Shown: one piece after another, positions 24,748 through 30,718 of the stretch
Layout: the number at the start of each line of letters is the position of its first letter
Numbering within the stretch: the first letter of the stretch is position 1
From: an uncultured delta proteobacterium
GTDB taxonomy: Bacteria > Desulfobacterota > Binatia > Binatales > Binataceae
Reading direction: 5' to 3'
Assembly (NCBI GenBank): GCA_963711565.1
Contig: CAVQEQ010000004.1
Coordinates: 1,408,001 to 1,472,000 of the forward strand
Length of the DNA: 64,000 nt
The notes under the pieces: model-generated
The model's database searches: none
Told to the model about the DNA's origin: nothing
The model's input: only the letters and a program-made list of their open reading frames with translations
Program-made: the position numbers and the translations under genes

Positions 24748-25942
24748 CTACACCGTCACCCCGAGCGCCCTGGCGACCGTCTGCATATCCTTGTCGCCGC
24801 GCCCCGACAGATTCACGATCATGATTTGTTCCTTCGCCATCTGCGGCGCCAGCTTGATCGCCTGCGCCACCGCATGCGCACTTTCGAGCGCCGGGATAAT
24901 TCCCTCGGTCTCCGACAGCGTCTTCAGGGCGTCGAGCGCTTCGGAATCTGTGACCGAAGTATATTCGGCGCGGCCAACGTCGTTCAGCCACGAATGCTCG
25001 GGGCCGACGCCGGGGTAATCGAGTCCCGCGGCGATCGAATGCGTCTCGCGAATCTGGCCGAGCTCGTCTTGCAGCAAGTAGGTCTTGTTGCCGTGCAGCA
25101 CACCGACGCTGCCCTGGGTGATCGTGGCAGCATGATGCGGTCCGCTGATGCCGAGACCGGCCGCCTCGACGCCGATCATCTTCACGTTACTGTCTTTGAT
25201 GAACGGATAGAAAAGCCCGATCGCGTTTGAGCCGCCGTTGACGCATGCGACCAGCACGTCGGGCAGACGGCCTTCATGCGTGAGAATCTGGCGGCGGGCC
25301 TCGCGCCCGATGACCGCTTGGAAGTCGCGCACGATCATCGGGTATGGATGCGGTCCCGCCGTCGTGCCGATCAGGTAGTAGGTGTTGCGCACGGTCGCGA
25401 TCCAATCGCGCAGCGCTTCGCTCATCGAGTCCTTCAGGCTCTTGCTGCCCGCATCGACGGGCGTGACTTTCGCGCCAAGCAGCTTCATCCGAAAGACGTT
25501 GAGCGATTGACGCTCGAACGTCGAGCGAGCCCATGAAGACTTCGCACTCGCGGCGAAAGAGCGCCGCCATCGTGGCCGTCGCGACGCCATGCTGTCCCGC
25601 GCCCGTCTCGGCCGTGATGCGCGACTTGTTCATGCGCACGGCGAGCAGAGCCTGGCCGAGCGTGTTGTTCACCTTGTGCGCGCCGGTGTGGCAGAGATCC
25701 TCGCGCTTCATATAAATCTTCGCGCCGCCGAGTTTTGCGGTGAGATTCTCGCACAGGTAAAGCGGCGTCGGGCGTCCGACGAACTCGCGCGAACGATCCT
25801 CCAGCTCGGCGCGAAATTTTGGATCGCGGCGGGCCTCCTTGTAGGCGCGCTCGAGCTCGAACAACGCCGGCATCAGAGTTTCAGCGACGTACTTGCCGCC
25901 GAACTGGCCGAAGTGGCCGCGGCTATCGGGAACGTTTTGCAT
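24748..25942 (-). CDS. trpB: Tryptophan synthase beta chain; frameshifted by one extra base at 25517-25518 (probable sequence error)
   Basis: N-half has [15 protein letters not shown] and ETGAGQHG; C-half has [19 protein letters not shown] and NLSGRGDKD. Removing one T from GAC GTT CGAG restores [12 protein letters not shown]. Confidence 0.95.
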
Positions 25943-28940: not shown

Positions 28941-30443
28941 CTCTTCGCCGCAACTTCGAATTCGCGCGCGGCCTGGAGCGCCCGCACCATCGCGCGAGCC
29001 TTGTTCACCGACTCATCGAATTCCGCGCCGGGGTCCGAGTCGGCGACGACGCCACCGCCGGCCTGGATGTAAACGCGATTGCCCTTTATGAGCAGCGTGC
29101 GCAGCGCGATCGCCGTGTCGGTGTTGCCGGTGTAACTGAAATAGCCGACGGCGCCGGCGTACACGCCACGCCGAACACTCTTCGAGCTCGTCGATAATTT
29201 CCATGGCGCGGATTTTCGGCGCGCCGGAGACGGTACCTTGCGGAAAGGTCGCCGCAAAAGCGTCGAACGCGTCGCATCCTTCGCGCAGCATGCCGGTGAT
29301 GTTCGACACGATGTGCATGACGTGCGAATAGCGCTCGACGACCATCAGCTCGGTCACGTTCACCGAGCCAATTTCAGAGACGCGGCCAACGTCGTTGCGC
29401 CCGAGGTCGACGAGCATCACATGCTCCGCGCGTTCTTTGGGATCGGCAAGCAGCTCGGCTTCGAGTTCGCGATCCTCGGCTTCGGTCACGCCGCGCCGGC
29501 GAGTGCCCGCGATCGGCCTCAGCGTGATCTCGCGGCCCTCGACGCGCACCATCACCTCGGGCGAGGCGCCGACCAGCGTCTGCTCGCCGAGGCGCAGGTA
29601 GAACATGTACGGCGACGGGTTAATCGTGCGCAGGCTGCGGTAGATGTTGAACGGATGCGCAGTCAGAGGCGCCTCGAAGCGCTGCGACGGCACCACCTGG
29701 ATAACGTCGCCGGCCGCGATGTATTCCTTCGCCGCGGAAACCATCGCCATGTAGCCTTCGCGCGTCATGTTCGAAGAGATAGACGCGTCGTTGATCGCGA
29801 CGTTGCTCGCGCCTTCGAGAGACGGCGGCACGGCGGGACGTTTGAGTCGTTCGATGATCTCGTCGATCTTAACGCGCGCACTTTGGTAGGCCATTTTGGT
29901 CGAGGCGAACTCCTCGATCGGCACGTTGGCGATAATTTTGAGCGTCTGGCGAACGTTGTCGAAACAAAGCACCGTGTCGGTGAACATCAGGTGGAAATCG
30001 GGCGTGCCGAGGTCGTCAACCGCGGTCTCGGGAATCTTCTCGAAGCATCGCACGATGTCGTAAGCGAGAAATCCGACGGCGCCGCCGAAGAAGCGCGGCA
30101 GGTTGGGCAGCTCGGGCGAGCGGAAGCGCTTGACCTCGGCGCGCAATTCTTCGAACGAGTTGGCGGCGGAGCGAACCTCGACGCCGCGGCCGGGGCGGAC
30201 GATGTCCATGCGGTTCTTGCGCGCGCGCATCACGAGGAAAGGATCGGAGCCGAGGAAAGTGTAGCGGCCCCATTTCTCGCCGCCGCGGACGCTTTCGAGC
30301 AGGAAGGCGTAGTCGCCGCGCGCGATTTTGAGAAAGGCGGAGACAGGAGTCTCGAGGTCCGCGGCGACCTCCTCGAAGACCGGGATGAGGTTGAATCCCT
30401 TCGCCGCCAGTTGATCGAATTCGTTTTCGCTCGGTTGCAACAT
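28937..30443 (-). CDS. trpE: Anthranilate synthase component I; frameshifted by one extra base at 29181-29182 (probable sequence error)
   Basis: [28 protein letters not shown] and GAPKIRAM motifs. Removing one A from CTC GAA GAG restores [16 protein letters not shown] and the C-terminal [10 protein letters not shown]. Confidence 0.95.
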
Positions 30444-30482: not shown

Positions 30483-30517
30483 AAAAAGAAAAGGGCCGCA
30501 GGTTCTGCCTGCGGCCC
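30483..30517 (-). terminator. Intrinsic terminator of the trp attenuator
   Basis: Minus strand reads GGGCCGCAGG-CAGAA-CCTGCGGCCC (perfect 10-bp stem) followed by TTTTCTTTTT, 40 nt upstream of trpE. Confidence 0.9.
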
Positions 30518-30543
30518 TATTGGGAAATCGGTTTTGCGATGAA

Positions 30544-30624
30544 TTACAAAGCCGGCGCGCAGGCGGGTGCATCGAGGTGCCAACGCCACCATCCCGCGCA
30601 AACATTTCGGCCCGTGAGGTCCAT
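30544..30624 (-). CDS. trpL: trp operon leader peptide MDLTGRNVCAGWWRWHLDAPACAPAL (26 aa)
   Basis: ATG 30624 to TAA 30544; TGG TGG CGT TGG at 30591-30580; immediately upstream of the terminator hairpin and trpE. Confidence 0.88.
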   Translation of the reverse strand: MDLTGRNVCAGWWRWHLDAPACAPAL

Positions 30625-30633
30625 CTTGGGTTA

Positions 30634-30662
30634 ATGATCCATGCGAGGCGGGCGATTGTCAA
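30634..30662 (-). promoter_or_regulatory. Sigma70-type promoter of the trp operon
   Basis: Minus-strand TTGACA (30662-30657), 17-nt spacer, GATCAT -10, then 9 nt to the trpL ATG. Confidence 0.65.
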
Positions 30663-30718
30663 CCGGGTGTGTTGACGGAATGAATTTCCATTGCATCGAC
30701 GGAATAAATTCCGTCCTA

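Follow-up and report, generated by a model that had tools for sequence, protein, structure and literature searches.

The trp operon of this uncultured Binataceae bacterium is preceded by what is very probably (at about 90%, in our estimate) a classical ribosome-mediated transcription attenuator of trpEGDCFBA, which we read as real and probably functional, with a leader peptide that likely starts within a few bases of the transcript 5′ end. This reading is founded on conservation across the family, compensatory changes in the 2:3 and 3:4 helices, a predicted window of stall positions, the position at the head of the trp operon and the fact that neither TrpR nor TRAP nor a T-box was found. Segments and helices are named 1:2, 2:3 and 3:4, as in Escherichia coli trpL. 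The features are listed in Table 1 by their positions in the window, the whole 64,000 nt stretch of DNA that was analysed.

An earlier, sequence-only reading had described a TTGACA-N17-GATCAT promoter, an ATG 9 nt further on that opens a 26-codon ORF with a WWRW motif, segments 1 and 2, and a GCCTGCG with a CGCAGGC partner. Reading the sequence again, we find each of these exactly where it had been placed. The proposal that they make up a ribosome-mediated 1:2/2:3/3:4 trp attenuator gains from family conservation, from compensatory changes in 2:3 and 3:4 and from a predicted stall window whose end coincides with the last Trp codon. The hairpin that contains the stop codon had been overlooked.

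Table 1. Features of the trp leader region, with positions in the window
Feature	Position	Strand	Remarks
-35 box TTGACA	30662–30657	minus	predicted sigma70-type promoter
-10 box GATCAT	30639–30634	minus	17 nt spacer from TTGACA; ATG 9 nt on
trpL leader ORF, 26 codons, MDLTGRNVCAGWWRWHLDAPACAPAL, then stop	30624–30544	minus	unannotated; no SD; in 77/77 loci
Segment 1, 5′ arm of 1:2 anti-antiterminator	30600–30581 (core of earlier reading 30599–30587)	minus	MFE structure; overlaps Trp codons
Control codons TGG TGG CGT TGG (Trp12, Trp13, Arg14, Trp15)	30591–30580	minus	
Segment 2, codons 17–23, within ORF	30574–30556 (core of earlier reading 30569–30557)	minus	folding
GCCTGCG, segment 2 core	30564–30558	minus	pairs with segment 1 or segment 3
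Stop-codon hairpin CGGCTTTGT ... GCAAAACCG	30554–30546 with 30537–30529	minus	nested inside antiterminator
Stop codon TAA of trpL	30546–30544	minus	
Intrinsic terminator 3:4 and U-tract TTTTCTTTTT	30518–30483, stem 30518–30492	minus	terminator scan
Segment 3 core CGCAGGC	30513–30507	minus	3′ partner of 2:3; loop-proximal part of terminator 5′ arm
trpE with SD GAGG (30454–30451)	30454–28937	minus	first gene of trpE-G-D-C-F-B-A-accD

Downstream of the leader the gene order is trpE, trpG, trpD, trpC, trpF, trpB, trpA, accD and folC, with most of the trp genes overlapping by 4 nt, and the upstream neighbours are argS and a SPOR/FtsN-like gene. The closest TrpE proteins, which share 88–94% identity, are those of Candidatus Binatus, Ca. 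Binataceae and an uncultured deltaproteobacterium. TrpR (PF01371), TRAP (PF02081) and T-box (RF00230) were each searched for and not found in the genome, which is 94.9% complete. Near 29196, trpE contains a single additional base that all four relatives compared (4/4) lack, and trpB has a frame change near 25500; both frame breaks are probable assembly errors. An 8 bp inverted repeat (GACGGAAT-TT-ATTCCGTC) and a second, degenerate copy lie at 30715–30674, between the SPOR stop codon and the -35 box; in the upstream DNA of relatives, inspected by eye, they were not seen.

The unit of promoter, leader and terminator precedes trpE at all 77 family loci compared, and as the related sequences in these statistics are kin, they are not independent samples. 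The 77 comprise 24 loci from the genus, this genome included, 36 DNA matches from other genera and 17 loci from genomes that the DNA search had missed. Promoter, ORF and terminator are all present at the 24/24 genus loci fetched with TrpE. The DNA search matched 99/151 family genomes, and the 36 matches fetched from other genera all lie before trpE and all include a Trp ORF. To avoid selecting for the feature itself, 20 genomes missed by the DNA search were also sampled; 17 of them yielded a trpE 5′ end, and the leader was there in 17/17. The three genomes with no trpE match (3/20) were left out of the 77, as were L088 and L089, which have no trpE 5′ end, and L067–L070, which are second DNA matches with no trpE. 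One of the latter, L070 (G069:C47:14471–14602, minus strand), is a 50 bit match to the 3′ half of the attenuator that contains the stop-codon hairpin and terminator, with neither a Trp leader nor trpE.

The start codon (ATG in 75 loci, GTG in two), the reading frame and the Trp codons are preserved in all 77 loci. The family's leader peptides are 24–28 residues long, apart from one of 20, and contain 2–5 Trp residues. The positions of the Trp codons shift between genera, as in GWWRW, WANWRW, RRWW and WWCW, and their number stays at 2–5. With L076 excluded from the count for its premature stop codon, Trp is found at −14 from the last residue in 72/76 loci and at −12 in 68/76. Codons 21–24 are invariant, synonymous sites included, among 23 genus sequences. 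As the ORF had been selected by demanding two close Trp codons, the chance rate was measured with the identical test: only 6 of the 5627 TTGAC[ATG] sites in this genome, the trp leader's own among them, are followed 36–43 nt on by an ORF of 15–40 codons with W..W.

The 153 nt leader has a predicted folding energy of −65.4 kcal/mol (z = −3.3) and none of 200 shuffled sequences was equally stable. The MFE structure contains the 1:2 helix, the stop-codon hairpin and the terminator. The terminator and U-tract described in the sequence-only reading were recovered by the terminator scan. The stem has 10 G/C-rich pairs and a closing A-U pair (11 pairs in the scan), and across the 77-sequence alignment it is 97.1% paired, with both-side changes in 4/10 pairs and 25 compensatory cells, a height of pairing that was reached by none of 500 shuffles. 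The 2:3 antiterminator is 97.0% paired in the same 77 sequences and 2/7 pairs are altered on both sides; one pair varies between U-A, U-G and C-G (38, 32 and 7 sequences, respectively). As the antiterminator and the terminator share segment 3, they are mutually exclusive. The stop-codon hairpin is paired in approximately 80% of cells, and 6/7 of its outer pairs have two-sided changes.

The 1:2 helix is the weakest element of the attenuator. Segment 2 is predicted to pair with upstream RNA in 75/77 leaders, and the 1:2 pairing quoted in the sequence-only reading does form in the fold of this genome, but its register is not conserved; only a 4 bp GGCG:CGCC helix, in a different register, is kept in the consensus fold, and the register varies between genera. 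The comparison with relatives that had been proposed found the Trp codons and the covariation of 2:3 and 3:4 kept over the 77 loci, but not the register of 1:2. Relative to synonymous recodings of the leader, the 1:2 helix is weakly stronger (median z −0.46, negative in 56/77 leaders and −1.9 in this genome).

Near-leaderless initiation of trpL is likely, given the fixed spacing between the -35 box and the ATG and the absence of an SD. The promoter has 10/12 matches in a consensus scan. Upstream of the leader start, TTGAC is present at 77/77 Binataceae loci, and a -11 A (spacer 17) or a TA (spacer 18) at 74/77, with the start codon 36–43 nt after TTGAC at 76/77 of the family's trpE loci. When +1 was placed eleven bases past the conserved -11 A, the 5′ leader was predicted from promoter spacing to be 1–8 nt in 73/77 loci and 3 nt in this genome, where transcription is predicted to start near 30627, about 3 nt before the ATG at 30624. 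Using what we take to be the anti-SD motif, the predicted duplex energies in this genome are −4.9 kcal/mol for the leader versus −8.2 kcal/mol for trpE, and the medians over the 77 loci are −3.8 and −8.4 kcal/mol. A duplex of −8.4 kcal/mol or better precedes 1/77 leaders versus 40/77 trpE genes; an SD is absent before the leader, in agreement with the view that it is translated without one. The leader upstream of leuA in this genome has the same 39 nt geometry as the trp leader. A search for ATGs 35–40 nt after TTGACA in this genome gave no clear genome-wide peak over controls, so short leaders need not be general there. In six metatranscriptome runs, 5–9% of the words sampled were found, in every case within contigs of relatives, and in 5/6 runs the leader is covered by such contigs, which cannot show starts. 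Among the six contigs listed over the leader ORF, four extend upstream of the predicted start and two end at 30603 and 30616, with DNA carry-over and read-through indistinguishable in these data, so the contigs do not bear on the start, termination or expression of the leader.

In the mechanism that we propose, transcription would begin near 30627 and a ribosome would initiate, with no SD, at the ATG approximately 3 nt from the 5′ end. When charged tRNA-Trp is abundant, the ribosome would pass the Trp codons, enter segment 2 and reach the stop codon; with segment 2 covered, 3:4 would form and an RNA of approximately 145 nt would be terminated at the U-tract. As segment 2 is part of the ORF, it would be the passage of the ribosome over segment 2 that sets the Trp-replete state. 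With tRNA-Trp uncharged, a stall on Trp12–15 would mask segment 1 and leave segment 2 free. The 2:3 helix, closed around the stop-codon hairpin, would then occupy the loop-proximal half of the terminator 5′ arm before segment 4 exists, and once it had formed the polymerase would read through into trpE. If the leader were not translated, 1:2 would form, favouring termination.

Ribosome stalling was simulated by folding transcripts that end after segment 3 with the ribosome footprint forced single-stranded. The antiterminator probability exceeded 0.5 in 72/77 leaders at the best Trp stall and in 67/77 at every Trp stall, and the corresponding figure for transcripts to segment 3 with no ribosome was 23/77. 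In five of the 77, all relatives, no Trp stall produced the antiterminator. When the ribosome was placed at the stop codon the antiterminator formed in 0/77 leaders, a result that is largely built in, as the footprint there masks segment 2. A codon-by-codon scan in this genome predicted antitermination for stalls at approximately codons 6–16 and a collapse at codon 17, which places Trp15 at the edge of the antitermination window. When full-length leaders with a stalled ribosome were folded at equilibrium the terminator won, with an antiterminator probability above 0.5 in just 2/77. The predicted switch must therefore be kinetic, relying on co-transcriptional timing, which the folding mimicked solely by shortening the transcript.

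The same attenuator could operate with a leader that is translated mainly from longer transcripts, produced by read-through from argS–SPOR or from an earlier start, in which case trpL would be SD-less but not near-leaderless. Consistent with this, none of the terminators listed by the scan lies between the SPOR stop codon (30719) and the promoter. A strictly leaderless start lies 6–8 nt beyond the -10 box, and the ATG here, 9–10 nt past it, is further away than such a start needs. However, in many genera TTGAC and the -11 A keep a constant spacing to the ATG although the sequence farther upstream is different, and the leuL leader has equal spacing. We therefore consider longer transcripts an unlikely main source of the leader peptide. 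It is much less probable that the nascent peptide senses free Trp in the ribosome tunnel, in the manner of TnaC, and arrests translation at the stop codon, so that the ribosome sits over segment 2 and termination is forced at high Trp. The last Trp is fixed 11 codons from the stop codon in 59/77 loci, a C-terminal A-C-A-P is conserved, and Trp12 and Pro24 fit what we take to be the TnaC spacing. Yet the C-terminal codons do not vary even at synonymous sites, the C-terminal substitutions that do occur (C to W or R) follow base pairing with segment 3, and the same C-terminus is retained in a Trp-free Asn/Asp paralogue of the leader (see below). Together these point to a constraint on the RNA, and codon stalling alone accounts for the layout.

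An RNA switch in which the ORF is incidental, either a tRNA-binding T-box or one that depends on a TRAP-like protein, is more improbable again. A TGGCACC heptamer at the Trp15-His16 codons presumably resembles a T-box bulge, but it is not conserved, there is no space for a Stem I, and searches of the genome for a T-box and for TRAP found neither. The Rfam ‘trpB’ motif, which matches weakly (22.3 bits against a cut-off of 59; E 0.67), could be set beside the heptamer, but the leader's start codon is intact in 77/77 loci, as are its frame and Trp codons, and the sections of PMC11109978 consulted report the motif in Firmicutes and Fusobacteria. The frame breaks in trpE and trpB raise a further option, namely that in this strain the premature terminator is constitutive and leaky and the leader a relic that no longer responds to Trp. 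This too is highly improbable, as every leader element here agrees with the family consensus and, in an assembly of 4 contigs, sequencing errors are, we infer, the simpler source of single-base slips.

The ribosome-mediated attenuator that we favour was not recognizable through Rfam: no family matched the window at its gathering score. Relaxing the limit to E up to 10 gave seven matches, each scoring far short of its cut-off, and Trp_leader, which we take to be RF00513 and to represent the E. coli trpL attenuator, was not among them. Thus, the Binataceae leader lies outside that sequence family. The E. coli trpL region, described in the consulted part of PMC4007540 as a leader ORF with tandem Trp codons and alternative antiterminator and terminator structures, shares with the Binataceae leader a short ORF with tandem Trp codons and alternative hairpins before trpE. 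However, the ORF here has 26 codons rather than 14, spans segment 2 and has its stop codon within an additional hairpin that the antiterminator encloses. It also differs in that the leader has no SD and in that TrpR was not found in the genome.

Leaderless trpL genes are described in the sections consulted of three papers, for Sinorhizobium meliloti rnTrpL/trpL-trpE(G) (PMC6614838), Streptomyces lividans trpL1-trpE (PMC8079986) and Deinococcus deserti Deide_08989-trpEGD, the last transcribed from the base immediately upstream of the ATG (PMC4007540, Table S9). Like the Binataceae leader, these have a Trp-containing peptide, no SD and hairpins before trpE. Their starts were measured at 0–1 nt, whereas the Binataceae 5′ leader is predicted to be approximately 3 nt (1–8 nt in most relatives), and the peptide is 26 aa here versus 15–18 aa in Streptomyces and Deinococcus. 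The Binataceae leader also precedes a whole trpEGDCFBA operon, and belongs to a phylum other than those of Sinorhizobium, Streptomyces and Deinococcus. Our literature search found no report of a trp attenuator for the Binat/Binatota lineage, and an earlier prediction for related deltaproteobacteria may exist; the sections of PMC4833913, PMC2965389 and PMC11109978 consulted contain nothing bearing on the Binataceae lineage. As the mechanism is a textbook one and leaderless trpL has been published, the general picture does not change. The attenuator would bring an uncultured family, Ca. Binataceae, into the range of classical ribosome-mediated attenuation, and it offers sequence resources a small ORF that had not been annotated and an RNA model of the family that is absent from Rfam. 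It would also imply transcription–translation coupling in this lineage and ribosomes able to initiate on a 2–4 nt leader without an SD.

Outside the family, the attenuator unit has a patchy distribution. In five other families of the class, no copy was found at the six trpE loci examined (0/6). In a further family, f3, it precedes trpE in 4/4 of the fetched model matches that lie before trpE. These Trp leaders (L184, L185, L186 and L191; e.g. ...ASAWWRWCAK...) are found directly before trpE with a related terminator, and the attenuator therefore extends past Binataceae. A class-wide model search matched 84/150 genomes at E up to 0.001, and the matches outside the family were weak. Among the 16 that were fetched, four were Trp leaders before trpE, four were Leu leaders before leuA and eight were terminator-like sequences without a Trp leader. 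Short Trp-cluster ORFs, mostly of the NWWW type, were also seen before trpE in 18/18 loci from Syntrophales, Syntrophaceae, Syntrophobacterales and Syntrophus (within L143–L169; ORFs alone), and in 0/3 loci from Nitrospinota. Our search of the trp leader literature found no mention of Syntrophus.

Second leader matches in the family led to a gene for an aspartate-tRNA(Asn) ligase, a non-discriminating AspRS (ND-AspRS), that scores above the NCBIfam PRK05159 cut-off. The ND-AspRS gene was detected in 17/165 family genomes at E up to 1e-120, and an ND-AspRS gene with an Asn/Asp leader was not found in this genome (G000). The model trained on trp leaders gave full-length matches of 43.7–78 bits in 12/17 ND-AspRS loci (L203–L212, L217 and L219, in genomes G145, G064, G152, G067, G138, G055, G087, G104, G124, G080, G147 and G143). 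A copy of the leader was not found at the five ND-AspRS loci of genus g25. The peptides encoded by the 12 leaders are rich in Asn and Asp and free of Trp (e.g. MMLDHDNRNANGNRCRCTRACAPVS). The leaders all retain the segment 2 region together with the stop-codon hairpin and terminator, and most also retain the promoter spacing; a rough footprint scan predicted a matching stall window in 8/12.

An Asn/Asp-rich leader before ND-AspRS has a precedent in D. deserti, where Deide_10019 (MFAALANNNDNDPH) precedes a non-discriminating aspartyl-tRNA synthetase in the part of PMC4007540 consulted (Table S9). Going beyond Deide_10019, the Asn/Asp leaders of Binataceae are homologous to the trp attenuator, and it is this homology that is new, as Asn/Asp leaders before ND-AspRS were already known. 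On balance, we favour the idea of a portable module, in which a promoter–leader–hairpin cassette was duplicated, its Trp codons were replaced with Asn/Asp codons (or the reverse), and the copy came to control ND-AspRS, with both leaders starting a few bases from the 5′ end. If so, a single RNA scaffold would have changed its amino-acid specificity in nature, and the leaders would represent a class of initiation between leaderless and SD-led. The Asn/Asp copy would be a natural test case for changes of attenuator specificity, and in that respect is the more useful by-product.

Further leader-like sequences were seen elsewhere in this genome. The leader upstream of leuA (MFSNLLPELLLSLALTRAHARRASGQV; G000:C1:353372, plus strand) starts 39 nt after a TTGACT and has a strong terminator, giving a second attenuator with near-leaderless geometry. 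Similar leu leaders are present in families f15 and f9 (L188–L190 and L197). Near position 414710 of the same contig (G000:C1, minus strand), a TTGACA is followed 42 nt on by MTDTLTGWWEPSLFTLG, before an ORF that by eye resembles MotA/ExbB; no terminator was seen there and the arrangement may be due to chance. At G000:C2:111259 (plus strand; L181), a short ORF (MNPNIERARETSRGGVSATFGHH) and a terminator precede an ABC-transporter ATPase-like gene, and this is possibly another leader-peptide attenuator.
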